Notes: generated by a model from the letters alone, not told the origin. Shown: positions 1 to 17,361, counted from the stretch's first letter. The stretch: DNA of 64,000 nt from Escherichia coli O127:H6 str. E2348/69 (GCF_000026545.1 NC_011601.1), one strand, 5' to 3'. Made by a program: numbers and translations.

Positions 1-183
1 TGCGGTGATCCAGCCCTGGCCCTGACCTTTCAGGAAGCGCGGCACGCCTTCTTCAATAGAGGCGGTACACAACACTTTGGTATCGCCAAATTCGACCAGC
101 ACCGAGCCTTCTGCATGTTTTGTATAGTTACGAGTCAGGGTAACGGGACGCACCTGATTATTGCTACGGCCTGCTGGACGCAT
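1..183 (-). CDS. rph: RNase PH, N-terminal 61 codons (gene continues beyond window start)
   Basis: Reverse-strand translation from ATG at 183..181 reads [61 protein letters not shown], the RNase PH N-terminus; divergent from yicC as in E. coli. Confidence 0.85.
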
Positions 184-309
184 ATTGAAATCTCCGGCTT
201 GAAACAAATGTGGCTGCGCATTATACGGACTTCCGGCGGTTATTCCTATCCTGACAAGGCATCGATGGCTATAATCCTTCCACCTCTCCTTTTATAAACA
301 GGAACGTCT

Positions 310-1173
310 ATGATCCGCAGTATGACCGCCTACGCCCGGCGTGAAATCAAGGGTGAATGGGGGAGCGCAACCTGGGAAATGCGCTCGGTAAACCAGCGTT
401 ATCTGGAAACTTACTTTCGTCTGCCGGAGCAGTTCCGTAGCCTTGAACCTGTCGTTCGTGAGCGTATTCGTTCTCGCCTGACGCGCGGTAAAGTGGAATG
501 TACCCTGCGCTATGAGCCCGATGTCAGCGCGCAAGGTGAGCTGATCCTCAACGAAAAACTGGCTAAACAGCTGGTAACTGCCGCGAACTGGGTAAAAATG
601 CAGAGTGACGAAGGGGAAATCAACCCGGTTGATATTCTCCGCTGGCCAGGCGTGATGGCGGCCCAGGAACAGGATCTCGACGCGATTGCCGCTGAAATTC
701 TCGCGGCGCTGGATGGTACGCTGGACGACTTTATCATCGCGCGCGAAACCGAAGGTCAGGCGCTGAAAGCATTGATCGAGCAGCGTCTGGAAGGCGTGAC
801 CGCCGAAGTGGTCAAAGTCCGCGCCCACATGCCGGAAATCCTGCAATGGCAGCGTGAGCGTCTGGTGGCTAAGCTGGAAGACGCCCAGGTGCAACTGGAA
901 AACAACCGTCTGGAGCAGGAGTTGGTTCTGCTGGCACAACGAATTGACGTTGCCGAAGAGTTGGACCGCCTCGAAGCGCATGTTAAAGAGACCTACAACA
1001 TTCTGAAGAAAAAAGAAGCCGTTGGTCGTCGTCTGGACTTTATGATGCAGGAGTTCAACCGCGAGTCGAACACCCTGGCCTCGAAGTCTATCAATGCCGA
1101 AGTGACTAACTCCGCCATTGAGCTGAAAGTGTTGATCGAGCAGATGCGCGAGCAGATTCAGAATATTGAATGA
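310..1173 (+). CDS. yicC: YicC-family stress-induced protein, 287 aa
   Basis: 287-aa ORF with YicC-like sequence; expected position next to rph. Confidence 0.9.
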   Translation: MIRSMTAYARREIKGEWGSATWEMRSVNQRYLETYFRLPEQFRSLEPVVRERIRSRLTRGKVECTLRYEPDVSAQGELILNEKLAKQLVTAANWVKMQSDEGEINPVDILRWPGVMAAQEQDLDAIAAEILAALDGTLDDFIIARETEGQALKALIEQRLEGVTAEVVKVRAHMPEILQWQRERLVAKLEDAQVQLENNRLEQELVLLAQRIDVAEELDRLEAHVKETYNILKKKEAVGRRLDFMMQEFNRESNTLASKSINAEVTNSAIELKVLIEQMREQIQNIE

Positions 1174-1212
1174 TTTTGCATGCTGTCGCATGAAATTGCA
1201 AAAATCCATCAT

Positions 1213-1240
1213 AGCCCGCATTTTGCGGGCTTTTTTATTT
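1213..1240 (+). terminator. Rho-independent terminator downstream of yicC
   Basis: Hairpin agcccgca-tttt-gcgggct followed by T-rich run ttttttatttt. Confidence 0.7.
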
Positions 1241-1281
1241 TCATACTGTCGCATATGATTGCATAGCATCGCGCAAAACAT

Positions 1282-1300
1282 TTGTACCCAAGACTGTACC
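1282..1300 (+). repeat. attL core: 19-bp direct repeat TTGTACCCAAGACTGTACC (identical copy at 12406-12424)
   Basis: Exact 19/19 match at both ends of the integrase-bearing element. Confidence 0.75.
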
Positions 1301-1360
1301 TTTAATAATTTATCCAATTCATTTTGGGTACAAAATGATAGTCAATATTCAGGTGAAACT

Positions 1361-2620
1361 ATGGCAAAGCTGACAGATATCCAAATCAAGTCATGGATTA
1401 AGGCAGGAGAACGCTTCGAGGGGCGCTCTGACGGCAACGGGCTATACCTTCGCTATCGAGTGGGGGATAAAGTGCCTGTATGGCGTTTTCGATATCAGTT
1501 CGCTGGGAAATCACGGGTAATGCTTATTGGATCTTATAGCGAAATATCCCTTTCCAAAGCACGGGAAATAGCCAAGGAATTATCCGCACGTGTAGCCCTG
1601 GGCTTCGATGTCGCCGGGGAAAAGAAAGCGCGAAAAGCGGCTGCTATAGAAAAGATGGAGCGGGAGAAAAACGCGCTTCGCGTGTCAGAGCTAGCAACCG
1701 AGTATTTCGAACGGCAGATTTTGGGACGCTGGAAACATCCCGATCTTCTGCGCCGGAGAATCGATAAGGATATCAACCCACATATTGGCAACATGAAGAT
1801 AGAGGACGTAAAACCCCGTCATATTGATGCGATGCTACAGAGCGTTGTTGATCGTGGCGCTCCAACCGTAGCTAATGACGTTCTGCGCTGGACTAAACGC
1901 ATATTCGATTATGCTATCAAGCGTCATGCACTGGAATTAAACCCAGCTGGAGCATTTGATCTGTCAGACGCTGGCGGGCAGGAAAGTAGCCGTATGCGCT
2001 GGCTGACCCGTGAAGAACTTATACGTTTTTTCCAAGCTATGCGCACTGCAAAAGGATTCAGCCGCGAGAACGAGCTGACCATGAAGCTAATCCTCTGCCT
2101 GTGTTGTCGCAAAATGGAGCTGTGCGGTGCTCAGTGGGATGAATTCGACCTTGATGAAGCAGTGTGGCATCTACCAGCAGAACGCGTTAAAAACGGCGAC
2201 GCTATTGATATACCACTACCTCCACCTGCGGTTGGTTGGTTGAGAGAGCTTCGCACTATCGCGGGCAGTGGGAGTAAATGGGTTCTCCCCGCGCGGAAGA
2301 TGCAACACCGCATGATTCCCCACATTCAGGAAAGCACACTCCCAGTGGCGCTGGCAAAAGTACGCCGCGAAATGCCAGAAGTACCAAACTTCACAATTCA
2401 CGATTTCAGGCGTACCGCCCGCACCCATTTAGCGGCGTTGGGTGTCGATCCCGTAGTCGCAGAACGTTGCCTGAATCACCGCATTAAAGGCGTTGAGGGT
2501 ATCTACAACCGCCACCAGTACTTTGAAGAACGACGGGCAGCCCTGGAACTGTGGGCGGGGCTTCTGGTTTCGCTTGAACGAGGGGAAAACTACAATGTTA
2601 TTCCTTTATCTAAAATATAA
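1361..2620 (+). CDS. int: Tyrosine recombinase, P4-type integrase (419 aa)
   Basis: N-terminus MAKLTDIQIKSWIKAGERFEGRSDGNGLYLRYRVGDKVPVWRFRYQFAGK typical of P4-family arm-binding domain; C-terminal HDFRRT...HRIKGVEGIYNRHQY catalytic motif; start set at ATG 1361 with RBS aggtgaa. Confidence 0.9.
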   Translation: MAKLTDIQIKSWIKAGERFEGRSDGNGLYLRYRVGDKVPVWRFRYQFAGKSRVMLIGSYSEISLSKAREIAKELSARVALGFDVAGEKKARKAAAIEKMEREKNALRVSELATEYFERQILGRWKHPDLLRRRIDKDINPHIGNMKIEDVKPRHIDAMLQSVVDRGAPTVANDVLRWTKRIFDYAIKRHALELNPAGAFDLSDAGGQESSRMRWLTREELIRFFQAMRTAKGFSRENELTMKLILCLCCRKMELCGAQWDEFDLDEAVWHLPAERVKNGDAIDIPLPPPAVGWLRELRTIAGSGSKWVLPARKMQHRMIPHIQESTLPVALAKVRREMPEVPNFTIHDFRRTARTHLAALGVDPVVAERCLNHRIKGVEGIYNRHQYFEERRAALELWAGLLVSLERGENYNVIPLSKI

Positions 2621-2635
2621 AAGTTTTGTTTGAAG

Positions 2636-2740
2636 GTATTCACCCTATTCACCTTTTTAATTAACTTCATGATTTTAAATAATAAAAAAGGGTGAATACT
2701 TACAGTAAAACTAATCACCTTAGTATTCACCTGTTCACCT
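2636..2740. repeat. Cluster of five GGTGAAYA-type motifs (TATTCACC x3, GGTGAATA, TGTTCACC) downstream of int
   Basis: Read directly from sequence; a similar cluster lies at 12150-12265 at the other end of the element. Confidence 0.45.
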
Positions 2741-3123
2741 TCTAAAGCTGCTGTGGCTGCTCCCCTTGCCCGAAAACACGCCAGCCACCAGCGTTAAAAA
2801 AAACTACAAAAATCATCATCGTACAGATCTGTACGATGACGCCAGCACTCACCCTACAAAACAACCTAACTTATTGATTTCAAAAGTAGAGAAAATCTGC
2901 TTTATGCCACTAGCTCGCACCCGTCCCCAAAAAGAAAAAGCCCGCGCTGGAGACGCACGGGCTTTTGGGTACCGATAACCATGTTTGGAATCAACTCATT
3001 GAGTTCTGACCTCAATTTGCATGTTATCACAAGAAAAACACATTGTAATAATTGCAACAACGAATATCATCATTGCATATAATGAAACATAAATATCCGA
3101 TAGAACATACTGAGGTCTGACCG

Positions 3124-3675
3124 ATGCAAGATATTACAAACATCGCAGTGACTGGCGAAGATGGCGTGGTGACGTATGCCGACGGCAGTAAAGAGGAGTT
3201 CCAGTGCAGCGGAACCGTTGCGACCATCATTGCAAGTCTTGCAACGACACTCGAGAAAGAACGCAAAATGCGCATCGCCACCGGCGACCGCCTGCGCCGC
3301 ATGTACACCCGCGACAGTGATATGATTTCCCGCGGTTTGAATGGCACGTCTGCTACTTCCACGGCACCGACAGCAATGAATGCTGAGTTCATGCGTCTGG
3401 TACGTGCCGTAGCGCCGAAATACGATTCAGCACTGCCCGACGCCGACCCGCGCATCGTTGCGCTCGATGTGCTGCGCTACGCCCCTGCTGAGGCGTTCAG
3501 CGCCGTACACCCTACCCCAATGTCAGAAATCCAGCTGGATCAGGCTATCGATATACTCGAGCAGGTTGGCGACTACATGAAAGCAAACAATATCGCTCCG
3601 AAAATAATTTCTACAGGAGACGCAATCCGCAGCATCAATGCTGACAACGCCACCTTCTGGGGCAAAAAACACTAA
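3124..3675 (+). CDS. Hypothetical protein, 183 aa (first gene of cargo operon)
   Basis: ORF of 183 aa, same strand and closely spaced with three downstream ORFs; no motif recognised. Confidence 0.6.
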   Translation: MQDITNIAVTGEDGVVTYADGSKEEFQCSGTVATIIASLATTLEKERKMRIATGDRLRRMYTRDSDMISRGLNGTSATSTAPTAMNAEFMRLVRAVAPKYDSALPDADPRIVALDVLRYAPAEAFSAVHPTPMSEIQLDQAIDILEQVGDYMKANNIAPKIISTGDAIRSINADNATFWGKKH

Positions 3676-3688
3676 AGAGATATGAAGC

Positions 3689-3877
3689 ATGTCTATCTAT
3701 GACCCGAAATTAGCCGCAGGCAACCCACAGCGCGCCCACCGCCCAATGCTGACCCGTCAGGATCTTGAAACGGCAAAGGCACGCAATAACTTCGATCGCC
3801 AGAGTCGCAACCTGCAGCAACTCAACGAATCAAATGCACGGTTCTGGAGTGAACAGAATGAGAAAGCCAAACGTTAA
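3689..3877 (+). CDS. Hypothetical small protein, 62 aa
   Basis: Small ORF 14 bp after previous stop; basic/charged composition; no recognised domain. Confidence 0.4.
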   Translation: MSIYDPKLAAGNPQRAHRPMLTRQDLETAKARNNFDRQSRNLQQLNESNARFWSEQNEKAKR

Positions 3878-4034
3878 GCCGGTCCTGCTGTCCGCCGAGC
3901 AGATGCAGGCCATACGCAACATTCAGGAACGTGAACGCCAGCGCTCCAATCTCGGCGTCGCTCCCACCGTTCACCAGATTGCCCGCGGCCTCATGGCTAA
4001 GGCTCTGGCCTCACTGGCAAGCGAGGGCGCGTAA
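3858..4034 (+). CDS. Hypothetical small protein, 58 aa (start taken at ATG 3858)
   Basis: RBS ggag 9 nt upstream of ATG 3858; its stop overlaps the start of the next gene (TAATG). Confidence 0.4.
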   Translation: MRKPNVKPVLLSAEQMQAIRNIQERERQRSNLGVAPTVHQIARGLMAKALASLASEGA

Positions 4035-4765
4035 TGGGCGCCATTCACCAGATATATGAGCAGGAAATGTTCTATAACTGGATAGGCGATGGTAAACGAT
4101 GTGTAGCATTCCACGAAGCGGGCCATGCAGTAGCCGCATGGCTTATTCGCTTAGATATGCAGGTTATCGCCATTATGGATGAATCCGGCTACGTTGCTGG
4201 CGAACATGTACATGAAGCCCAGTGTTTGGGCGTTGTTAAACACGGCATAATCCACAGCCACGATCTCAGGCGTTTGCGGGAGAGTAAATCTGGTGTAGTT
4301 GGGCACGATGGCAAAGTTATCCCTTTCATACGCTACTACGCGGAAGGTATAAAGCGCGATGCAACAAAGGCCGCTTTTGTAGCCCTCGCTGGACCAGTAA
4401 GCGAAGCCATTTACGAAAATAACGAAATTTTCAATATAAAGTATTCACTCCCTCACCGCTATGACATGGCTAACGTAAATGACATGCTCGATTTAATATG
4501 TGCCACGGATAAGCGAATTAACAGGAAGTTAATGCTTTCTAAACTTGTTGAAAAGACCAAATTCCTCATGACTCAATACTGGCCGGAAGTAGGAAAAATA
4601 GCGCATTTGCTTGAGCGGGATAACATTGTTAATGGCCGCGATGTTAGCTCGCTAATCGGCCTCAACGTCATTGACCGGGCAACGCCATTTTTGGTATCTG
4701 ACTTGAGCAGTACATTTGCTCATCTCCCGTACTCGTCCCTGCCTCCGAATGAATTAGCAACTTGA
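4034..4765 (+). CDS. Standalone FtsH-like (M41-type) zinc metallopeptidase domain protein, 243 aa, no AAA+ module
   Basis: VAFHEAGHAVAAWL closely matches the FtsH zinc-binding HEAGH motif; later ALAGPVSEAIYEN resembles the FtsH third-ligand region; no Walker A/B present. Confidence 0.55.
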   Translation: MGAIHQIYEQEMFYNWIGDGKRCVAFHEAGHAVAAWLIRLDMQVIAIMDESGYVAGEHVHEAQCLGVVKHGIIHSHDLRRLRESKSGVVGHDGKVIPFIRYYAEGIKRDATKAAFVALAGPVSEAIYENNEIFNIKYSLPHRYDMANVNDMLDLICATDKRINRKLMLSKLVEKTKFLMTQYWPEVGKIAHLLERDNIVNGRDVSSLIGLNVIDRATPFLVSDLSSTFAHLPYSSLPPNELAT

Positions 4766-4812
4766 AGACAGTAAAGTAGCCATGCATTTAACACGCATGG
4801 CTATGTGAACAT

Positions 4813-6036
4813 TTAAGAATTAGAGCGCTTAGGCGATCGCGTAAATTGCACTAAAGCCCCTTTATGATCGTTAGCCTGCACATCACGATGCTCAACCAAC
4901 ATAGATTTTAATTTTGCCAGATGCACAACAGCAGCCTTCTTGCCAGTCAGGTACCCCTCGGGCAAACCAGCAATCATTTCCACATCAATAGCAGATAAAC
5001 CTGCGAATGCAGCAAGCCGTTCAACTGAAATGATTCCAGACGATGCCAGCAATTCAATAGTACGTTTCAACAAACGTGGTTTTTCAGGCTCACGATAATC
5101 ATCTCCCGGCTCTGATTTCGCTCCCCAACGTGCTGAACGACGCTTATAAAGATTTTGTTTCTCTTCTTCCGTAATAATATGCAGCACATGTAAACGCATG
5201 ATACTTGCCGCAACGGAAATACCATAGCGTTGTTTAATTAAAAGCAAGCTATCTAATGTTACCGGGGTCCTAATTTCTTCGGCAAATGTCTCAGCAGGAA
5301 GCAGCAGTGCTCCCGCAAATTTATGAGCCTGACTTTCCTTCAGCTTATAACGTTCGGCTTCGAGTTCGTTGCCAACATAGCGGTGAAGGATCAGATGACC
5401 AATTTCGTGAGCAAGGTCAAATCTGCTACGAAAAGCATTACCTTTATCTGAAGAGAGGAGAACAAAAGGAACACCTAAAGTCTCACTCCAGGCAGAAAGC
5501 CCTTCAATCTGCGCAACGCCTGTTTCTTCTCTAATAACGATAATACCATTACTCTCTGCGGCTAAAGCAAGATCCGGTATTTCCTTTGTACCAAGATTCC
5601 AAAGAGCACGGCACTCATTAGCAGCGTCTTCAATATCTGCATCACTAATTTCATCAATGTTTGTAAAGCTACGACGCGGTAGTTTTAGCTCCGGCAGATC
5701 TACAAACTCAGTCAGCTTAGTAACTAACTCATTAGCCCAATGGATTCGAGTTTCTAACATTGCTCGTGCAGCTACATGAGCTGATGCATTGCTTCTGAAC
5801 AGAGGCTTTGACATCCCCTTCAACAGAGGGCGCGTAAACCATTCAGGTGTAACATTTACGACAGTGGCCAGACGTTCTAAAGCCTCAGACTCTGGAGCCT
5901 GTTGACCGGAACGCCATTTGCTAATGGTTGCTGGTGATACACCCACCATAGTAGCTAATTGAGTTTGTGATAGCCGCCGGGCGGCTAGTACCTGTGCTAA
6001 CCTGCCCGGTTGAAATTCGGCGACGCCTCGGCTCAT
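4813..6036 (-). CDS. XRE-family HTH fused to ImmA/IrrE (M78-type) metallopeptidase, with ~150-aa C-terminal extension (407 aa)
   Basis: N-terminal LSQTQLATMVGVSPATISKWRSG helix-turn-helix; FDLAHEIGHLILHRY HExxH motif typical of ImmA/IrrE peptidases. Confidence 0.75.
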   Translation of the reverse strand: MSRGVAEFQPGRLAQVLAARRLSQTQLATMVGVSPATISKWRSGQQAPESEALERLATVVNVTPEWFTRPLLKGMSKPLFRSNASAHVAARAMLETRIHWANELVTKLTEFVDLPELKLPRRSFTNIDEISDADIEDAANECRALWNLGTKEIPDLALAAESNGIIVIREETGVAQIEGLSAWSETLGVPFVLLSSDKGNAFRSRFDLAHEIGHLILHRYVGNELEAERYKLKESQAHKFAGALLLPAETFAEEIRTPVTLDSLLLIKQRYGISVAASIMRLHVLHIITEEEKQNLYKRRSARWGAKSEPGDDYREPEKPRLLKRTIELLASSGIISVERLAAFAGLSAIDVEMIAGLPEGYLTGKKAAVVHLAKLKSMLVEHRDVQANDHKGALVQFTRSPKRSNS

Positions 6037-6680
6037 ACATTATCTTCCTCGGTTCCATCTTTTCTGATAATGCCCCTTTTGAGCCCAGGGAATGCATTAT
6101 CTTCTTGGGACGGAACTACATCATATCGGGTTAAAAAAAGTTCAAGTGGCTCATGAAAAACCCAGCGCTTCCCATCAGAACTTGGTACAACAAGCTCTAT
6201 AGACATCGGAGCTTCAGGCTGAATCTGCAACGAACCGGAAAAACGGCATACTACGAACAGTGTAGCTTTTGGCACATCAGAACCATCGGAGAATAAATCC
6301 GGTTGCACCATTTTTTCCACAAACACGTTCTCAGAAATGAGTTCTTGCTTACGTTTGCTACGGAATAATCTCTTCCACTGGTTATCATTGTAGCTTTCAC
6401 GAACAATCGTGAATATACCACTATGGCCTTCTACAATACGGTTACCACGCAGCTTTCCAGGATTACAACCGTTGGCCTCAAACACCTCATAAATAGTTTC
6501 ATTCAGGTTTAAATGACGATCATAACCAAGCGCGGTCGATCTGTGATCTAGCTTCTTCTTTTGAGCATAATCGTAAGAACGCTTTGATGCCGCGTAAATC
6601 GCGTCAGAAAGGGCCATGAAGAGTTGTTTTGAAACATTCTGAACGATGAGATCTGCCACTTTGGATTTTTTCACGACCAT
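6033..6680 (-). CDS. Hypothetical protein, 215 aa, translationally coupled upstream partner of the HTH-ImmA gene
   Basis: ORF of 215 aa; its stop overlaps the downstream start (ATGA at 6033-6036); no recognised motif. Confidence 0.6.
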   Translation of the reverse strand: MVVKKSKVADLIVQNVSKQLFMALSDAIYAASKRSYDYAQKKKLDHRSTALGYDRHLNLNETIYEVFEANGCNPGKLRGNRIVEGHSGIFTIVRESYNDNQWKRLFRSKRKQELISENVFVEKMVQPDLFSDGSDVPKATLFVVCRFSGSLQIQPEAPMSIELVVPSSDGKRWVFHEPLELFLTRYDVVPSQEDNAFPGLKRGIIRKDGTEEDNV

Positions 6681-6683
6681 TTC

Positions 6684-6702
6684 CTATCACTGTCACTGAT
6701 AG
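6684..6702. promoter_or_regulatory. Inverted repeat CTATCA-N7-TGATAG overlapping the RBS/start region of the 215-aa gene (candidate operator)
   Basis: Read directly from sequence immediately adjacent to the start codon at 6680. Confidence 0.25.
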
Positions 6703-7209
6703 CCGTGATTTTATATCAGTATTTTTTCGTGTGTCCATAACGCAATCAATTATTTTTTCCTTTGTCAGCAAGAATTATATAAAAAGCACTATCATGACAG
6801 GATTTGGGCCACTAACCTTTCACAGACTCTTGAAGTCCTAGAAAAAAGCAATGGCACAAGGTGTCCTTGCCGGGAGAAAAATCATCTGGCTACCAGCAAC
6901 CTTATAGATTCCAGATCAACGTAATATCAAAGTAAAACGTCCATTTCCGGTACCATATTTGGTCATTACGACGGGGGAAACTTATACCCACTGCTGCCCC
7001 ATCGTCAGCGCCGACAGGGACCTATGCCGCAAGGTATAAGGCAAAATTGGCATTTTCGCTATTCCCCCTGCCCGTATTTTTTGGCTTACTGGAATTTCTC
7101 TATCTAACACAATGAACTTGAGGCTATTCCGACAGGGAGAAAAGCGATCTACGCCTGACCGCCTGCCTCAGCAATCATCCAGGCAAGTACGTGTGTAAGG
7201 CTAACGCGA

Positions 7210-7890
7210 ATGAGTGATTTTTATTCCCCTCTACCAAGCTATGATCTTGTCCGGGCAGCGGAGATGCTGACTGATAAGGGGGCAAATTGTACCGGTAACG
7301 ATTTATTGGAACTATGGAACCAAGGCGTTATCGAGTTGTGTTTTTCTCTGCCGGACTACATTGCTTGTGAAGATGTTAATTTTCCCGGGCATGGTCACAG
7401 CATTTTGTTATCCGTGGATCCGATTAGCTTCAACCTTTTCTGGCTAAATGTTGATTACCCACCGAACTTAAATGCTAACTTTTCTGTGAAAGAATATGGC
7501 TCAGATAGTGAATTCCATGAGCAGTCCCTATGGATACCAACAGAACCGCACTACAACACTCACCATGATAACGGGGAAGGGCTTTGCGAAGCGTTAAGGA
7601 ATACTTATGGCCGGGAAAATTTACGAATACCAGGTGTCGAATTGCAAAAGGTTTGGCGCTTTTTGATCGGTCAGCCTTATGAAAAAAAGCCAACGCCTGA
7701 GCGTATCACCGCTAAGCAATGCCGCTTTATCGTCGCATTACTCAGATCGTATAACCTGACTGACGATGATTTTAAGGGGAGCATTAGGGACCTGAGAATT
7801 AAGATATCTAACCGGATCCCTTCAATCGGTGATCCTGAAATCGATGATAATACCCTTACTGACTGGCTGAAGAAGGGAGGGGTTCGGTAG
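7210..7890 (+). CDS. Hypothetical protein, 226 aa
   Basis: Isolated ORF upstream of alpA, preceded by ~530-bp AT-rich intergenic region; no recognised motif. Confidence 0.55.
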   Translation: MSDFYSPLPSYDLVRAAEMLTDKGANCTGNDLLELWNQGVIELCFSLPDYIACEDVNFPGHGHSILLSVDPISFNLFWLNVDYPPNLNANFSVKEYGSDSEFHEQSLWIPTEPHYNTHHDNGEGLCEALRNTYGRENLRIPGVELQKVWRFLIGQPYEKKPTPERITAKQCRFIVALLRSYNLTDDDFKGSIRDLRIKISNRIPSIGDPEIDDNTLTDWLKKGGVR

Positions 7891-7992
7891 CTGAGTTTTC
7901 ATAACTCCGATGAGTTTTCAATAACTCCCCCACCCGTAACCACCTACCCCGTAGCCTTGCGATTACCTTCTCACTCAATAGCAGGTAATCGC

Positions 7993-8205
7993 ATGAAATC
8001 GCAAACTTTCACCTTTCCTACCAATGGCAACGCACGAGCCAAACAAGTGGCGCACTATCTTGGAGTGCATATCAGCACCGTATGGCGCTATGCAAAACGT
8101 CCTGATTTTCCAAAACCCCACCAGTTAACCGACGGCGTGACCGTCTTTGACGCCGCAGCTATTCGCCAATGGAACAAGCAAAAAACCGGGGGTGAGAATG
8201 CTTAA
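7993..8205 (+). CDS. alpA: AlpA-family phage transcriptional regulator / excisionase-like DNA-binding protein (70 aa)
   Basis: KQVAHYLGVHISTVWRYAKRPDFPKPHQLTDGVTVFDAAAIRQW is the AlpA-type HTH pattern; start set at ATG 7993. Confidence 0.8.
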   Translation: MKSQTFTFPTNGNARAKQVAHYLGVHISTVWRYAKRPDFPKPHQLTDGVTVFDAAAIRQWNKQKTGGENA

Positions 8206-8259
8206 CGCGACCGTGAGCACACCCTGCACGACAGCCGTTCGATCTCCATTGTTGGCGGG

Positions 8260-8454
8260 TCAGGCTTTCGGCTCAATACCCAGCCGCTGGAGTTCTTTGC
8301 GCCCCAAGGTTTTCATCCAATTAGCTAAACTCATACCTGCATCTCGTGCGGCGGCCTCGAATTGCTCTTTCAATTCTGGGGCGATCCTCACTTGGAAAGC
8401 TGGTGCCTTTCCCCTGCCTTTGGGCTGTTTATCACGCTGTATTACTGTTGACAT
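8260..8454 (-). CDS. Small ribbon-helix-helix-like protein (64 aa), opposite strand to the replication operon
   Basis: FQVRIAPELKEQFEAAARDAGMSLANWMKTLGRK resembles RHH (Arc/CopG-type) strand-helix-helix; start chosen at internal Met. Confidence 0.4.
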   Translation of the reverse strand: MSTVIQRDKQPKGRGKAPAFQVRIAPELKEQFEAAARDAGMSLANWMKTLGRKELQRLGIEPKA

Positions 8455-8588
8455 GTATGTACCTATTAAACTAAGATTCAAATCAATAGGTACGCACCTT
8501 AACATGTTAAGGTCAGAAAAGACAACGCCCCGTAGTGCTCGCAACACATACGGGGCGTCTAACCAACAACGTTACGGAGACTAACGCT

Positions 8589-8789
8589 ATGGCTAAGCCG
8601 CAGTGTACCCAAACTCACCCCAAATATCAGTATCGTTTTATGGCGCTCGATCGCGCTGACCGCCAGGCAAAACCCTGCAAAATCATTGTTGAGGCCACCA
8701 GCGAGCATGAAGCACGTAAGGTGTTGGCACCTCACTACATCCTGTCACTGTCCGCCGTTTTGCCAGTTCAGGAGGTGAGCCATGTTTAA
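8589..8789 (+). CDS. Hypothetical small protein (66 aa), satellite replication-module operon
   Basis: RBS ggaga upstream of ATG 8589; overlaps next ORF. Confidence 0.5.
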   Translation: MAKPQCTQTHPKYQYRFMALDRADRQAKPCKIIVEATSEHEARKVLAPHYILSLSAVLPVQEVSHV

Positions 8790-8976
8790 TGTCATTGTCA
8801 CGGTCACCTATCACTTTTCGGGAACGATCCGTCGTTTTGCTATTCCGGAACGTTTCAATAATCGTGAGCTCGCAGAGAAAGCGGCGCAGCAGTTAACCCA
8901 TACCAGCTATCTGGATGATGGAGTGAGCAGAATTGTGACCCACGCGGCGGAAGTAGTGGAGGTGCGCCATGTATGA
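8782..8976 (+). CDS. Hypothetical small protein (64 aa)
   Basis: Strong RBS caggaggtg; overlapping start/stop with neighbours. Confidence 0.55.
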   Translation: MFNVIVTVTYHFSGTIRRFAIPERFNNRELAEKAAQQLTHTSYLDDGVSRIVTHAAEVVEVRHV

Positions 8977-9157
8977 CGCCTACCTGAACCCAAAGGACGC
9001 ACTCCGTCCGATCGCCGTTGCACTCGAGGCTGCGCAGTTTATCGCGCTTGACCCGGAGAATACCGATTTAGCCCATGAGCTGATCGCCTGGGCACTTGAA
9101 ACAGCCGCGCGTGCCTCAGCTGCGCAACGTAACACCCCGGAGGTGGACAATGCTTAA
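8969..9157 (+). CDS. Hypothetical small protein (62 aa)
   Basis: RBS ggaggtg upstream; translationally coupled. Confidence 0.5.
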   Translation: MYDAYLNPKDALRPIAVALEAAQFIALDPENTDLAHELIAWALETAARASAAQRNTPEVDNA

Positions 9158-9458
9158 TCTCAATACATGGAATCTTTTCACGCTGCCGCTGAACGGTGGC
9201 GCAGCTGAGACAGCGCCGGACGATCTGCGTCTGCTGGCCGCTGTGGGGGACGAGGCTCGCAACAACTACCTGCGCGGTGTAAGCGCCATCGGCAATCTGA
9301 TCTTCTGGGCATGTGATAACCCCAACTACACCGACCATCAAGCTGACCTGCCAGCGCTGGGCGCATTCCTGAAACATACCGCTGATATGGCGCGCGCTGC
9401 CGAATTCATGGCAGGACATCTGGACTCACTGGCTGACGGCAAAGAGGGAGGCAAATAA
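9150..9458 (+). CDS. Hypothetical protein (102 aa)
   Basis: RBS ggaggtg before ATG 9150; stop overlaps next start. Confidence 0.55.
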   Translation: MLNLNTWNLFTLPLNGGAAETAPDDLRLLAAVGDEARNNYLRGVSAIGNLIFWACDNPNYTDHQADLPALGAFLKHTADMARAAEFMAGHLDSLADGKEGGK

Positions 9459-9679
9459 TGCCACGCAAACATCGCTCATCAAGCAACCTGATCAAATTAA
9501 TGGAACGCCAGAAAGGTATAGGGCGCGACGATATCCAGATCGCAGATAATCGCCCTACATTCATGCCGTACGAGCCGAACGGAACCTACGCTACAAACCG
9601 CCATACCCGCCGTATGCTACGCAAGCTCCACGGCATCCAGGCAAAAAGAATGTGTGATCTGAAAGGAGGTCAGAAATGA
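9458..9679 (+). CDS. Hypothetical small basic protein (73 aa)
   Basis: RBS gagggagg; stop overlaps primase start (ATGA). Confidence 0.5.
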   Translation: MPRKHRSSSNLIKLMERQKGIGRDDIQIADNRPTFMPYEPNGTYATNRHTRRMLRKLHGIQAKRMCDLKGGQK

Positions 9680-12090
9680 GTGGATTCGATCACCTGATGG
9701 AGCAGGGGCAGAAACGCACCCCTGCTCGTTTTACTGCAAATAGCTTTTCTGACCTGTGCAACGCTATTCTATCGCATCGTGTGCAAATTTCCATCACACA
9801 GGAAATGACGGATGAAGAACGGCGCAAAGAAAAGCAGAAACTGTACTGGTTCTCGGCAACTACCCAGCAGGACGGGCAGCGACGTAAACCCGAAAACATG
9901 GCACCGTGTGCTTTCGGTATGCTGGACATTGACGGCAGCACTCCCGGTGCAATCACAGCACTTGTACAGGTGTTCCGGCGATACTCAATGCTGGTGTACC
10001 AGACGGCCAGCTATACGACGGATGAACCTCGTCTGCGTATTGTGTGCGAGCTTTCCCGAGCGGTTGAATCTGACTACCGCCGAGCGACAGGCGAATCCAT
10101 AGAAACTTTGTTGATGCAGGAGGCTGGATTCTCATTCGCCAGCCTGGCGGATAAGAAAGCACGCTGGGAGAACGGCAGCGATTATGTTGTCTTTGACCGC
10201 AATGTATACGGCGCTCAAAGCTATTGCTACTGTCCACACACTGGAGCGAAAGCCCAGAATTACGCGGGCGCGGTAATCGACGTAGGGGCGTTACCGGAAC
10301 CCGCCCAGCCACCAGCGAAGGCGGCCAAAAGCAAGGCAAAGAAACAGCGCCAGCGTGACGCCGCGGCGGTAATAGATGCTGATTTTGACGATCTGAGCGC
10401 CGGACCGGATAACTTCCTTATCGCCGACCTGCGCAGCGCACTCTGGTTTCCCTCCATGCTGCAAAAGGCATGGGACAATGGGGCGTGGATTGAGCAGGGC
10501 TACCGCCTTGCATCTCTCAAAGGCACCGATTTTGAGGACGACGCGCGGCAACTGTGGGTCGAGTGGTCATTGACCGCAGCGGATGGCTGGCCTGATGAAG
10601 AACTTGATGAAGTCGCGGCACAACGCTGGAATGGTCTCGCCCCTGACAAAACCAGCTATAAAGCTATTTTTACTGATGCTCAGGCGCAGGGGTGGAATAA
10701 TCCGGGCAAATGGCGAGCAAAGGCCGCGTACATTGAGAAAATGGCCCCCAGCACACGCGGTGAACTGCTGGCGCAATATTACGGCAACGTATGCCTGAAA
10801 GCTGATGGCAACATGGTTTATCACTATACCGGGCAGGTGTGGGAGCACATCGCCGATGCCGAGTTGCGCCGCCAGCTTTCGCAGATTTTCAAAGATAACG
10901 GGGTCCCCTTTACACCGTACGAGGTTAAAAGCGCGATTGAGGCTATGGGAATGCTTCTGCCTTTAATGGGAGAAACTCCTCGTAACCTGATTGGCTTTGC
11001 CAACGGCGTTTATGATCTCGAGGCGCAGCGATTCCGCCCCCACTGCCCAGACGATTGGCTGACCAGCCATAACGGCGTTGAATACACGCAGCCGGTTAAA
11101 GGCGAAACCCTGAAAAACAATGCCCCAAACTTCTGGCGCTGGCTGCATCATTCCGCAGGGGGCGACTTCGACAAAATGGAGAGAATCAAAGCCGCTCTGT
11201 ATATGGTGCTGGCAAACCGCTACGACTGGCAACTGTTCATCGAGGTTACCGGTGCTGGTGGCAGTGGTAAAAGCGTGTTCACGGGTATTGCACGTATGCT
11301 GACGGGCGAACTACACGCCACCAGCGGCACAATGGAGGACATGGACACCGCGCGCGAACGCGCATCTTTTGTCGGCAAAAGCCTGATCACCCTACCCGAC
11401 CAAGCAACATATACGGGTTCCGGGCCGGGTATCAAGGCTATAACGGGCGGCGACGTGGTAAGGATCGACCCAAAGCACGAAAAGCCATTCCATACGGTTA
11501 TTCGCGCCGTTGTCATCGCAACAAACAACGAACCTATGCGTTTCACCGAACGACAAGGCGGGATATCGCGGCGCCGGGTTATTTTCCCGTTTAACCATGA
11601 AGTGCCGGAGGCGGAACGTGATCCCCATCTGCTCGATAAAATTAAAGCCGAACTGCCGGTAATCGTCCGTGGTCTGCTGATTGACTTCGAACAGCCAGGC
11701 AAAGCCAAATCGCTACTTATCGCGCAGCGTGATTCAGCGGAAGCGCTGCAGGTGAAGAACGATAACGACCCGATGTATGGCTTTTGCTCTTACCTGCTAG
11801 GTTTGCCGAATCCCGAGGGCATGTACATGGGCGATGGGCGCATGGCGCGAGAGCCACGCATCTACCTCTATCATGCTTATCTGGCCTATCTGGAAGCCTA
11901 CGGTTATCAGAGAACCCCCACCCTACCGAAGTTCAGCGGAGATTTACGGGACACGCTCAAAGCCTTTGGTATTACTCTGGACAGTAAAAAGAGTAAAAAG
12001 GGCAAAAGATATAACGTCAATTTGTCTGACAGGGCACAAGAATGGCTGGGAGAAGACGAACTCTCAGCTGTGCCCGACACATTGCAGTAA
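9676..12090 (+). CDS. P4 alpha-like bifunctional DNA primase/helicase (804 aa)
   Basis: Walker A GAGGSGKS in the C-terminal half; size and architecture typical of P4-alpha-type replication proteins; RBS aaggagg. Confidence 0.85.
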   Translation: MSGFDHLMEQGQKRTPARFTANSFSDLCNAILSHRVQISITQEMTDEERRKEKQKLYWFSATTQQDGQRRKPENMAPCAFGMLDIDGSTPGAITALVQVFRRYSMLVYQTASYTTDEPRLRIVCELSRAVESDYRRATGESIETLLMQEAGFSFASLADKKARWENGSDYVVFDRNVYGAQSYCYCPHTGAKAQNYAGAVIDVGALPEPAQPPAKAAKSKAKKQRQRDAAAVIDADFDDLSAGPDNFLIADLRSALWFPSMLQKAWDNGAWIEQGYRLASLKGTDFEDDARQLWVEWSLTAADGWPDEELDEVAAQRWNGLAPDKTSYKAIFTDAQAQGWNNPGKWRAKAAYIEKMAPSTRGELLAQYYGNVCLKADGNMVYHYTGQVWEHIADAELRRQLSQIFKDNGVPFTPYEVKSAIEAMGMLLPLMGETPRNLIGFANGVYDLEAQRFRPHCPDDWLTSHNGVEYTQPVKGETLKNNAPNFWRWLHHSAGGDFDKMERIKAALYMVLANRYDWQLFIEVTGAGGSGKSVFTGIARMLTGELHATSGTMEDMDTARERASFVGKSLITLPDQATYTGSGPGIKAITGGDVVRIDPKHEKPFHTVIRAVVIATNNEPMRFTERQGGISRRRVIFPFNHEVPEAERDPHLLDKIKAELPVIVRGLLIDFEQPGKAKSLLIAQRDSAEALQVKNDNDPMYGFCSYLLGLPNPEGMYMGDGRMAREPRIYLYHAYLAYLEAYGYQRTPTLPKFSGDLRDTLKAFGITLDSKKSKKGKRYNVNLSDRAQEWLGEDELSAVPDTLQ

Positions 12091-12109
12091 CTTGTAAAAA
12101 ATCACCAAG

Positions 12110-12132
12110 AACCCCGTAAATCGGGGTTTTTG
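12110..12132 (+). terminator. Rho-independent terminator after the primase gene
   Basis: Hairpin aaccccg-taaa-tcggggtt followed by ttttt. Confidence 0.65.
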
Positions 12133-12149
12133 TCTATTTATTAGTCTGA

Positions 12150-12265
12150 AAGGGTGAACAGGTGCGCATACCTTAACAAAGCTGTTCACTCTAATAATTT
12201 TCTTTAATATCAGTACACTACCCGCAATAAGTGAACAGATGGACGGGGTGAACACTTCACACCTA
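12150..12265. repeat. Cluster of GGTGAACA-type motifs (four to five copies, both orientations) near the attR end
   Basis: Read from sequence; mirrors the motif cluster at 2636-2740. Confidence 0.4.
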
Positions 12266-12405
12266 TAGCGCGAAATATTTTAATATTTGCAGTTGAATTG
12301 CAATCCTTGAAAACAGAAACGCGTAGCAAAACGTAGAGTGCTGAAAAAATTTTGTTGGGGAGCAGTTCAAACTGCATGAGCAATTTTCAAGCACTCCTCT
12401 TTGTC

Positions 12406-12424
12406 TTGTACCCAAGACTGTACC
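12406..12424 (+). repeat. attR core: second copy of 19-bp direct repeat TTGTACCCAAGACTGTACC
   Basis: Exact match to 1282-1300. Confidence 0.75.
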
Positions 12425-12655
12425 CAATAGAAAAAATAGAAAATAAAAACTCAGCAATAGCAGCGATTGGTTACACTACTCAACATTCAGATTCAACTCG
12501 TAACGCCAATTCTTACTTTTCAGCCTTCACAAATGCCGCCCACTCAAACAGAGCGGCATTTTTCTTCCCCGCAACTTCAATTCTGTTTTGCGTGCCTGCT
12601 CCAGATTTTGCGATGTTTTTTTGCCCAGCGCAGTGAGAACGTGAGATACTCACAA

Positions 12656-12671
12656 CTGTATATAAACACAG
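12656..12671. promoter_or_regulatory. LexA (SOS) box CTGTATATAAACACAG in the dinD promoter
   Basis: Matches CTGT-N8-ACAG consensus; ~45 bp upstream of dinD start. Confidence 0.75.
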
Positions 12672-12716
12672 TTGTAGACTTACTTTCCTTGCAATCGATA
12701 TCACATGGAGTGGGCA

Positions 12717-13541
12717 ATGAACGAACATCATCAACCTTTTGAAGAGATAAAGCTGATTAATGCAAACGGAGCAGAACAATGGTCAGCAAGACAACTTGGG
12801 AAACTACTGGGTTATTCAGAGTATCGTCACTTTATACCTGTATTAACGCGCGCCAAAGAAGCTTGTCTGAATAGTGGTCACACAATTGATGACCATTTCG
12901 AGGAGATCCTCGATATGATCAAAATTGGCTCAAATGCCAAAAGAGCATTAAAAGACATCGTACTCTCCCGCTATGCCTGTTACCTGGTAGTACAAAACGG
13001 CGACCCTGCGAAACCGGTTATTGCGGCAGGGCAAACTTATTTTGCTATCCAGACCCGACGGCAGGAGCTGGCTGACGATGAAGCTTTCAGGCAACTTCGT
13101 GAAGACGAAAAGCGTCTTTTTCTGAGAAATGAGTTGAAAGAACATAACAAACAATTAGTTGAGGCAGCGCAGCAAGCTGGGGTAGCGACAGCTATCGATT
13201 TCGCCATATTTCAGAATCATGGTTACCGGGGGCTGTATGGTGGATTAGATCAGAAAGCCATCCATCAGCGGAAGGGGCTGAAAAAGAGTCAGAAGATCCT
13301 GGATCATATGGGTTCAACAGAACTGGCGGCTAATCTCTTTCGAGCTACCCAAACAGAAGAAAAACTCAAGCGGGATGGCGTGAATTCAAAACAGCAAGCT
13401 AACACCACACACTTTGACGTGGGTCGCAAGGTGAGGCAAACCATTCAGGAACTTGGCGGAACCATGCCTGAGGAGTTGCCGACCCCGCAGGTCAACATCA
13501 AGCAGTTGGAAAACAGTGTAAAAATTACAGAGAAGAAATAG
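12717..13541 (+). CDS. dinD: DNA damage-inducible protein D (274 aa)
   Basis: MNEHHQPFEEIKLINANGAEQW N-terminus; LexA box upstream; start set at ATG 12717. Confidence 0.9.
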   Translation: MNEHHQPFEEIKLINANGAEQWSARQLGKLLGYSEYRHFIPVLTRAKEACLNSGHTIDDHFEEILDMIKIGSNAKRALKDIVLSRYACYLVVQNGDPAKPVIAAGQTYFAIQTRRQELADDEAFRQLREDEKRLFLRNELKEHNKQLVEAAQQAGVATAIDFAIFQNHGYRGLYGGLDQKAIHQRKGLKKSQKILDHMGSTELAANLFRATQTEEKLKRDGVNSKQQANTTHFDVGRKVRQTIQELGGTMPEELPTPQVNIKQLENSVKITEKK

Positions 13542-13832
13542 CAGAAACTAAAAACTCTTTTTGTTGATTGAGATACCCGATGCGTAAGCCAAAGTCCAGG
13601 TGCGGTGAACACAATGGCTAAACATTGCACCTTTCTTTTCCACCCCTCAATTTTAACCTATTTTTTCTTATGCATTCTCTCAGACAAGAAGTCAGAAGAA
13701 TGCATCTACGCTACAGAAAATAGCGATTTCACATAACTACAAGTTATCAATTTCCTCTCACCTTAAAAAATCTCAATCGTGACAATACGCACAAATCGCT
13801 ACCCTGCCAGACAGATTTTTAGGGAGAGAACC

Positions 13833-16224
<2,392 letters not shown>

Positions 16225-16266: not shown

Positions 16267-17013
<747 letters not shown>

Positions 17014-17067
17014 ACCTGATTTCAGTATCATGCCCAGTCATTTCTTCACCTGTGGAGCTTTTTAAGT

Positions 17068-17343
17068 ATGGCACGCGTAACTGTTCAGGACGCTGTAGAG
17101 AAAATTGGTAACCGTTTTGACCTGGTACTGGTCGCCGCGCGTCGCGCTCGTCAGATGCAGGTAGGCGGAAAGGATCCGCTGGTACCGGAAGAAAACGATA
17201 AAACCACTGTAATCGCGCTGCGCGAAATCGAAGAAGGTCTGATCAACAACCAGATCCTCGACGTTCGCGAACGCCAGGAACAGCAAGAGCAGGAAGCCGC
17301 TGAATTACAAGCCGTTACCGCTATTGCTGAAGGTCGTCGTTAA
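17068..17343 (+). CDS. rpoZ: RNA polymerase omega subunit (91 aa)
   Basis: [29 protein letters not shown]. Confidence 0.95.
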
Positions 17344-17361
17344 TCACAAAGCGGGTCGCCC

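Follow-up and report, generated by a model that had tools for sequence, protein, structure and literature searches.

Gram-negative phage-inducible chromosomal islands (PICIs) have been listed at two positions beside yicC, between yicC and dinD and between yicC and yicG (Fillol-Salom et al. 2018, PMC6092414 Table S1), and their canonical layout combines unidirectional rightward transcription with an alpA gene next to int (Fillol-Salom 2018, PMC6092414). In helper-embedded PICIs, a doubled, co-oriented motif lies at -81±2 and +132±2 bp as measured from the centre of attP, and the authors who described it proposed that it is bound by the integrase arm domains or by AlpA (PMC10111431). Among published defence families, RosmerTA is a toxin-antitoxin system whose antitoxin is a Zn-peptidase (Millman et al. 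2022; Ernits et al. 2023, PMC10440598). Here, we describe an element that follows yicC in a 64-kb stretch of DNA (the window, whose coordinates are used throughout) that is 100% identical to Escherichia coli O127:H6 E2348/69. We conclude with good confidence that the element is an 11.3-kb Gram-negative PICI-type island (~1153-12495), of the int-alpA-primase kind regarded as phage satellites, that integrates at the 3′ end of yicC, and that two perfect 19-bp repeats near its ends are attP arm-type sites. What is new is a member of an already catalogued class, the PICI-type islands of the yicC integrase clade, with RosmerTA cargo, in a well-studied strain.

A preliminary description of this locus took the 19-bp direct repeat, TTGTACCCAAGACTGTACC, to be the attachment site bounding the element. 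The repeat is real: a search of the window returned two exact copies, at 1282-1300 and 12406-12424, with none expected by chance (100 shuffles), and no third copy was found there even when two mismatches were allowed. Its role as a boundary did not survive comparison with other genomes. We compared a synthetic empty site (left flank, one 19-mer, and right flank) with 5426 complete E. coli genomes and found no contiguous match; the best matches, K-12 included, skipped ~199 bp in the middle. In island-free genomes, the yicC stop codon is directly followed by ...CTCGTAACGCC, and the DNA missing from these genomes spans ~1172 to 12495, past both 19-mers, which sit within the element, 108 bp (left) and 63 bp (right) from its ends. 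Neither the 19-mer nor the left 108 bp (1174-1281) or right 63 bp (12425-12487) occurs in any island-free genome, K-12 and EC42405 among them. These outer flanks were confined to 17 of the 5426 genomes, all of them island carriers, in which they always lay at two separate places and were never contiguous. Since island-free genomes have neither the 19-mer nor its outer flanks (~174 bp of surrounding DNA), the 19-mer is not the attachment site; reference genomes without a single copy at this position were what the preliminary description had itself given as grounds for refutation. Across the representative genomes of ~100,000 species, it gave three chance-level matches only, in unrelated phyla (Nostoc, Rhizobium, and an acidobacterium).

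The att core is formed by the last 21 bp of the yicC open reading frame (ORF). As the preliminary description stated, yicC and dinD are neighbours in K-12 and the insertion is not at a tRNA gene (none was found in 1-14500); however, recombination takes place within the yicC ORF rather than in the yicC-dinD intergenic region. The features of the attachment region are as follows.

310-1173, + strand: yicC, the target gene (RefSeq annotation; carriers aligned against empty sites)
1153-1173, + strand: attL core CAGATTCAGAATATTGAATGA, from the alignment of carriers; contains the inverted repeat ATTCA-GAATAT-TGAAT
1179-1263, + strand: inner region of the P′ arm, two 22-bp imperfect direct repeats flanking a terminator
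1179-1200 and 1242-1263: the imperfect direct pair of 22-bp CTGTCGCAT repeats, CATGCTGTCGCATGAAATTGCA and CATACTGTCGCATATGATTGCA, respectively
1282-1300, + strand: left 19-mer, predicted doubled arm-type site of the P′ arm; TGTACCCAA at 1283 and TGTACC at 1295, +129/+141 from the core start
1324-1332, - strand: inverted arm-type copy TTGGGTACA, +171 from the core start, just 5′ of the int ATG
12406-12424, + strand: right 19-mer, predicted doubled arm-type site of the P arm; TGTACCCAA at 12407 and 12419, -82/-70 from the core start
12488-12495, + strand: attR core remnant CAGATTCA of E2348/69; native host DNA restarts at ACTCGTAACGCC

Integration replaces the end of yicC synonymously. The island-derived codons read CAG AAT ATT GAA TGA, versus CAG AAC ATY GAA TAA in the native gene, leaving Q-N-I-E-stop unchanged; all carriers end yicC with CAGAATATTGAATGA and native genomes with CAGAACATYGAATAA, and the island-type terminus AATATTGAATGA is common to all carriers, whichever yicC allele precedes it. 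The core contains inverted half-sites (ATTCA-GAAYAT-TGAAT), and attL and intact attR are identical at 19 of 21 positions. Two single-nucleotide polymorphisms (SNPs), host C/T in GAT[C/T] and island T versus host C in GAA[T/C]AT, allowed us to place the crossover in TCAGAA; in DEC5B, for example, the host C of GATC is found at attL and the island T at attR. Intact attR sites were present in FWSEC0003 (O45:H2) and 99E2750, which carry the same island and read ...CAACATT-CAGATTCAGAACATTGAATAA-CTCGTAACGCC: the native yicC terminus is repeated there over 21 bp, and native downstream DNA follows (CAGATTCAGAACATTGAATAA and then CTCG). Three different host right flanks, SE15-type backgrounds without dinD among them, adjoin islands of this type, and each join falls exactly at the core. 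Homologous recombination cannot give such joins, which therefore indicate repeated site-specific integration.

If the core is the crossover site, what are the 19-mers? Each consists of two tandem 9-mers, TGTACCCAA, spaced 12 bp apart, and with the inverted copy near int there are five such sites, at -82, -70, +129, +141, and +171 (inverted) from the core start. In the GenBank record of phage P4, the features annotated 'attP arm sequence repeat' lie, in the same orientation, at -77/-65, +132/+144, and, inverted and overlapping the P4 int ATG, +171. Doubled motifs were found within ~2 bp of the same offsets in six of the seven relatives that we read, while the motif sequence itself varied between islands; the exception was L014, in which the arm pair is 11 bp further out. 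The left-pair offsets are the same in L015, L018, L027, L028, and L029, and the right-pair offsets in L018, L027, L028, and L029. In L018 (1-7700), an IMG/VR contig with two related yicC islands in tandem, the junction between the islands consists of P arm, core, and P′ arm, all intact, without yicC sequence on its left. In the integrase, residues 4-99 match arm-binding domains of known CP4/P4-type structure (PDB 3JU0/3JTZ), and residues 102-207 match 2KJ5. We conclude from this arrangement that the perfect 19-mers are the P-arm and P′-arm arm-type integrase sites, not the crossover site, with binding by Int predicted from sequence and by analogy. The helper-embedded PICIs have their own doubled motif, TGTATTGC, which is stated to be absent from other PICIs (PMC10111431), and the motif of the yicC PICIs differs from it in sequence; the targets differ as well, with prophage late genes in the former and yicC here. 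An analogous doubled arm motif at the helper-embedded-PICI geometry thus also occurs in yicC PICIs and in P4.

Relatives of the island are frequent at this locus. In 522 genomes (~10%), an integrase gene ~70% identical at the DNA level lies immediately 3′ of yicC. The three such islands that we read (Eco_70239, L027; MS14385, L028; and RM13514, L029) encode integrases that are 78-80% identical in protein sequence to that of the E2348/69 island, and in each case the yicC-end repeat marks both island ends. The PICI of RM13514, EcCIRM13514, has been published. The genes of the E2348/69 island are listed below.

1361-2620, + strand: int, 419-aa tyrosine recombinase, P4/CP4 family, arm-binding domain at the N-terminus (PHROG_1, 3.7e-66)
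3124-4765, + strand: four-gene cargo module (183, 62, 58, and 243 aa); the last protein has a HEAGH motif and a weak peptidase M41/FtsH-like match
4813-6036, - strand: rmrA, predicted RosmerTA antitoxin, XRE-type helix-turn-helix (HTH) plus ImmA/IrrE Zn-peptidase (HEIGH) (PADLOC RmrA PDLC03951, 3.5e-125, full length; PHROG_2439)
6033-6680, - strand: rmrT, predicted RosmerTA toxin, overlapping rmrA by 4 nt (PADLOC RmrT PDLC03937, 8.1e-16, full length)
7117-7184, + strand: int-alpA RNA motif (Rfam RF02996, full-length model, E 2.9e-5; 39.4 bits, where the gathering score is 35.8)
7210-7890, + strand: 226-aa protein before alpA (no PHROG, Pfam, NCBIfam, or PADLOC match)
7993-8205, + strand: alpA, AlpA-family HTH regulator/excision activator (Pfam PF05930, Phage_AlpA, 6.9e-7; PHROG_66, 1.7e-8)
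8260-8454, - strand: small Arc/YlcI-YnfO-like DNA-binding protein (PHROG_228, Arc-like repressor, 1.2e-5)
8589-8789, + strand: Icd-like cell-division inhibitor (NF033153 phage_ICD_like, 5.3e-18, above cutoff; RefSeq coding sequence)
8782-8976, 8969-9157, 9150-9458, and 9458-9679, + strand: four small overlapping ORFs running into the primase gene (RefSeq coding sequences)
9676-12090, + strand: primase/helicase of the P4 family, 804 aa (TIGR01613, 109.9 bits versus a cutoff of 108.7; D5_N, DUF5906, Pox_D5)
12106-12132, + strand: primase terminator
12154-12256, + strand: candidate replication origin with four GTGAACA(G) iterons, direct at 12154, 12231, and 12248 and inverted at 12183
12656-12671, + strand: LexA box of dinD, CTGTATATAAACACAG (host flank, not island)
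12717-13541, + strand: dinD (host flank, not island)

The matches to PHROG_1, PF05930, and TIGR01613 bear out the P4-type integrase, AlpA, and alpha-related primase of the preliminary description, and the LexA box lies 232 bp from the right 19-mer, in agreement with its ~230 bp. At 11.3 kb, without structural or lysis genes in PHROG scans, and at a listed PICI site, the island resembles the yicC PICIs (EcCIRM13514 at yicC-dinD and CfCIP10159 at yicC-yicG). It shares with them the integrase clade (78% amino acid identity to the EcCIRM13514 integrase), the att core at the yicC terminus, the attP arm geometry, alpA, an opposite-strand YlcI/Arc-like gene, an Icd-like gene, small ORFs, and a P4-family primase, and they are likewise devoid of structural and lysis genes, at 11-12 kb. 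It differs from them in its arm motif (TGTACCCAA versus GTGTACATA), in the 5.4 kb of cargo, including the leftward RosmerTA genes, that splits alpA from int, in lacking perC, ssb, proQ/finO, and antirepressor genes, in its primase allele (48% identity over 55% of the length), and in the position of the accessory region, which is left of alpA here and right of the primase in the yicC PICIs.

The likeness to P4 (NC_001609) is more distant. Both have a core of 20-21 bp, tandem arm repeats spaced 12 bp apart with an inverted copy by the int ATG, an Int of the family with an arm-binding domain, an Icd-like gene (44% identity between the island's protein and the P4 cI/icd region), and the helicase and C-terminal part of the alpha primase. 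Primase residues 314-791 are 44% identical to P4 alpha; the C-terminal two-thirds are alpha-like, whereas the N-terminal third has no relationship to alpha and is similar to APSE P3. Int is 27% identical to P4 Int (residues 23-402), P4 targets a tRNA-Leu gene rather than the 3′ end of a protein-coding gene, and the P4 arm motif, GGGGGCAYA, differs from that of the island. Of the P4 genes and sites, gop/beta/cII are missing and the following searches were negative: psu, delta, and sid homologues gave no match in PHROGs, NCBIfam, or Pfam and no tblastn match to P4 at 1e-3, in agreement with the preliminary description; epsilon had no match in the island to P4 epsilon; the P2/P4 cos site was absent, the 19-nt P4 cohesive end not being found even with four mismatches; and an Rfam scan of 1-14500, which returned the int-alpA RNA alone, found no CI/C4 RNA. 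CP4-57 of E. coli K-12, in which AlpA drives int expression and excision, also pairs an AlpA-family regulator with a CP4-type integrase; it targets ssrA, is larger, and is not known to have a related replication module.

Several points weigh against our reading of the island. Under the SatelliteFinder criteria (PMC10085698), it has three of five PICI components (integrase, AlpA, and primase), the 'type C' class, which the SatelliteFinder authors consider ambiguous and leave out of their confident PICIs. Its alpA gene is 5.4 kb from int and its rmrA, rmrT, and Arc-like genes run leftward, at odds with the canonical layout; in EcCIRM13514, L027, and L028, alpA is one gene after int. Capsid-morphogenesis, small terminase, and Rpp genes were not found in any ORF by PHROGs, Pfam, or NCBIfam, and with no helper-exploitation gene and no cos site, satellite behaviour is deduced from family resemblance only. 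The best match to lambda cosN (one mismatch, at 11445) falls inside the primase ORF and is equalled by matches elsewhere in the window. The excised attP junction of the island had no matches in IMG/VR, and a 192-bp synthetic attP returned only attL-type partial matches from the E. coli genomes, so excision is not directly documented; a metagenome scan with the P-arm end likewise recovered attR and tandem junctions of other yicC PICIs and none from this island. Finally, AlpA or another factor could bind the 19-mers instead of Int. We nevertheless regard 'PICI-type island of the yicC integrase clade' as a stronger label than 'reduced P4'. The preliminary description's suggestion of a reduced or non-canonical satellite holds to the extent that the island is not a canonical P4, since the P4 capsid-redirection genes are absent, while its reading as a reduced P4 gives way to the PICI-type label.

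The attR site of E2348/69 is damaged. It reads CAGATTCA followed by ACTCG, and the 12 nt of core that have been deleted, GAACATTGAATA, comprise the overlap and the right half-site. This loss makes excision by attL x attR unlikely, and the E2348/69 copy is probably locked in the chromosome, where, judging from the sequence, it would serve as a fixed defence island. Such damage is not confined to E2348/69. Among the carriers of the E2348/69-type island, attR was intact in 2 of 10 and eroded in 8 of 10. EcCIRM13514 has lost 2 nt from its attR, and eight of eight junctions of another yicC PICI, sampled evenly from 270 genomes, were damaged. All six metagenomic junctions sharing the P-arm end were damaged too, five of them by the same 2 nt in four host-flank backgrounds and the sixth, at a tandem junction, by 17 nt. 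(One 127-kb metagenome contig, L044, has two related yicC PICIs in tandem and an internal junction, at ~4600-4720, with 17 nt lost.) Altogether, 23 of the 28 P-arm-linked core junctions that we read carry deletions of 2-17 nt, representing at least 13 distinct alleles in several host-flank backgrounds; the loci concerned are window positions 12488-12495 and L007, L009, L029-L035, and L039-L052. By contrast with attR, attL was intact at all sites read (at least nine). One stretch of 3-4 nt, CAGATTC·A·G·A, at the crossover point mapped above, contains the start of all 23 deletions, and random decay would not produce so fixed an endpoint.

The leading idea for the cause of attR erosion is faulty rejoining after integrase cleavage, in abortive excision or in recombination across the core T/C heterology. 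Selection against excision may contribute as well. Going further, the integrase of the yicC-PICI clade might itself erode attR through recombinase-initiated deletions, analogous to topoisomerase-I-dependent short deletions and arising in abortive excision or in integration across a heterologous overlap, and so systematically 'ground' satellites as fixed defence islands; we offer this tentatively and think it rather unlikely as it stands. For the recurrent 2-nt loss, we considered a shifted register on the tandem ATTCAG in attP, ATTCA/ATTGA misalignment, and unequal cleavage positions, and rejected all three, each of which predicted an altered attL that was not observed.

It is quite possible that the element is no satellite at all and is instead a defence island fixed in the chromosome, or a decayed element, that retains its mobility genes only as relics and spreads mainly by homologous recombination of its flanks. 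The eroded attR of E2348/69 and of most carriers fits such an account, as does the failure to find packaging or hijack genes. A34 and E2348/69 share an attR allele and differ in cargo, and the Rosmer allele has been swapped between backbones that are otherwise 99% identical, which implies homologous recombination within islands. Against it, no backbone ORF is disrupted and conservation among carriers is 97-100% (four islands compared; two small genes are each missing from one variant), two carriers have both attL and attR intact, and the exact core joins to three host flank types, one of them without dinD, are not what the spread of flanks by homologous recombination would leave. This alternative bears on what the E2348/69 copy is today and for the most part does not conflict with a PICI-type origin.

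We consider it improbable that the element is a reduced P4-like satellite still dependent on a P2-type helper. The Int family, the attP architecture, the similarities of the Icd-like protein and of the C-terminal part of the primase, and a size close to that of P4 are what such a satellite would show. The missing psu, delta, sid, epsilon, cos, and CI/C4 RNA speak against it, however, as does a SatelliteFinder score of three of seven P4-like components, where at least five are required (PMC10085698), and Int is far closer to the yicC PICI integrases than to P4 Int.

A nested insertion, in which an older element at the yicC end decayed to ~199 bp and its 19-bp attB then received the present island, is very improbable. 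This history would leave one repeat nested within another, as seen here with the 19-mer inside the yicC-end repeat, and tandem or nested PICIs are known at this locus. Yet the remnant alone is absent from the 5426 E. coli genomes, every related island would require a matching remnant of its own, the near-constant offsets of the inner pairs (L014 aside) match the P4 attP, and the third, inverted copy at +171 would fall inside the supposed inner island.

Least likely of all, and in our view barely tenable, is the reading of the 19-mer as the att core of an island at 1282-12424 with an intergenic yicC-dinD attB, for although the repeat is perfect, unique to these two places in the window, and directly flanks int, where direct repeats usually mark att sites, it lacks any counterpart in island-free genomes, is built of tandem 9-mers rather than the inverted repeat expected of a core, corresponds in relatives to imperfect pairs at the same offsets inside the outer yicC-end repeat, is retained as both pairs around a single core at a tandem junction, and shares its geometry with the P4 arm repeats.

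Under the PICI-type reading, the integrase recombines a core of 21 bp that matches the yicC ORF exactly at its 3′ end; on integration, island DNA restores the final yicC codons without changing the amino acids and brings in a new terminator. By analogy with P4 and lambda, the N-terminal arm domain of Int would bind the 19-mer arm sites and assemble the recombination complex. Family knowledge suggests AlpA, preceded by the int-alpA RNA motif, as the likely switch for excision and replication, and the primase/helicase with the downstream iterons would replicate the excised circle. Excision junctions are predicted at CAGATTCAGAAYATTGAAT / CAACATTCAGATTCAGAAYATTGAAT in the core, not at the 19-mer.

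Within the P′ arm, the island-supplied yicC terminator (stem at 1213-1231 plus a T-run) lies between the core and the left 19-mer, and relatives also have a terminator at the equivalent position. The 22-bp repeats that flank it may be binding sites for AlpA or an accessory factor. The Eco_70239 island (L027) has an analogous 22-bp-type repeat pair of different sequence. At the other end, a RefSeq hypothetical protein of 86 aa (12376-12636, + strand) reads through the P-arm sites and the attR remnant into host DNA; this ORF is almost certainly spurious.

The rmrA and rmrT genes form the two-gene operon shared by RosmerTA systems, in which RmrA (HTH plus ImmA-type Zn-peptidase) is accompanied by an upstream, overlapping RmrT. 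The pair is predicted from its full-length PADLOC matches, and the toxin belongs to family PDLC03937. Here, RosmerTA occupies a PICI accessory slot. In DEC5B and A34, the same slot holds a different Rosmer pair (PADLOC 1.3e-149 and 1.1e-52), with an RmrA only 27% identical, in a backbone that is 99% identical; the 226-aa gene is swapped together with the Rosmer allele in the DEC5B variant. The four-gene module, for its part, is found elsewhere as the right-end cargo of a different PICI at tRNA-Gly (L036 9190-10770), and at 91-96% identity in other genomes. The swap of the Rosmer pair and the occurrence of the four-gene module in the tRNA-Gly PICI indicate that both are exchangeable accessory modules. 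The four-gene module, whose last protein is 223-243 aa, moves among PICIs at differing loci and positions (L036; L007 5840-8555), and a gene of ~350 aa often lies 3′ of it; none is present in E2348/69. The 183-, 62-, 58-, and 226-aa proteins and the 352-aa protein of the DEC5B variant gave no match in PADLOC, PHROGs, NCBIfam, or Pfam. We regard the M41-like four-gene module as a candidate uncharacterised defence or accessory system that is not in PADLOC 2.0.

Regulatory and replication functions are grouped in the right half. The int-alpA RNA is 4.5 kb from int and directly 5′ of the 226-aa gene and alpA, which may make it the point where the regulatory operon really begins. PHROG_66, which AlpA matches, is annotated as excisionase and transcriptional regulator. 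The counterparts of the Arc-like gene in AUSMDU00014361 and EcCIRM13514 are annotated YlcI/YnfO; a promoter-like site at 8448-8477 faces icd, and the Arc/YlcI-like protein is a candidate repressor of the rightward operon. The iterons of the putative origin (12154-12254) are short, lie immediately beyond the terminator of the primase gene, and surround AT-rich DNA, a layout like that of the PICI origin (PMC6092414).

The host DNA around the island varies as well. SE15 (phylogroup B2) passes directly from yicC to yicG, without dinD (L010 16374-16626). Just inside the attR of the L027 yicC PICI, beside the native copy, lies a second dinD that belongs to the island (32615-33439; a paralogue with 84% identity), and dinD matches PHROG 8036 at 1e-106. 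From its sequence relationships, dinD appears to behave as accessory, phage-derived DNA. We searched 3′ of dinD for a third att remnant, a sign that dinD is a relic of an older island, and found none. In MS14385 (L028), a reverse-transcriptase-family gene, possibly a retron, lies between slmA and pyrE (16404-17363), and the cargo of the yicC island includes, at 31604-36136, P22-like DNA-ejection-protein genes (DUF2824, 'phage DNA ejection protein'). Further along the window, a tRNA-Sec gene (selC, ~38278-38372) is followed, in the part of the window up to 64000, by the enterocyte effacement locus (LEE; espF, espB/D/A, eae, tir, and esc genes). The PICI-type island is ~26 kb from the LEE and lacks the PerC-like LEE regulator found in many E. 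coli PICIs.

These results expose an annotation trap, in that the att site need not be the longest perfect direct repeat found beside an integrase gene. In elements of the P4/CP4 family, conservation can be higher at the arm-type sites than in the core, and delimitation by repeats can set island boundaries ~100 bp too far in and name the wrong attB. Our analysis also places the RosmerTA system of the prototype enteropathogenic E. coli (EPEC) strain E2348/69 on a PICI-type backbone that alternates two very divergent Rosmer alleles, an added example of satellites as exchangeable defence carriers. The island itself is of modest interest, and the pattern of attR erosion is the one thing worth following: if the erosion is integrase-driven, it would provide a concrete mechanism for satellite domestication.

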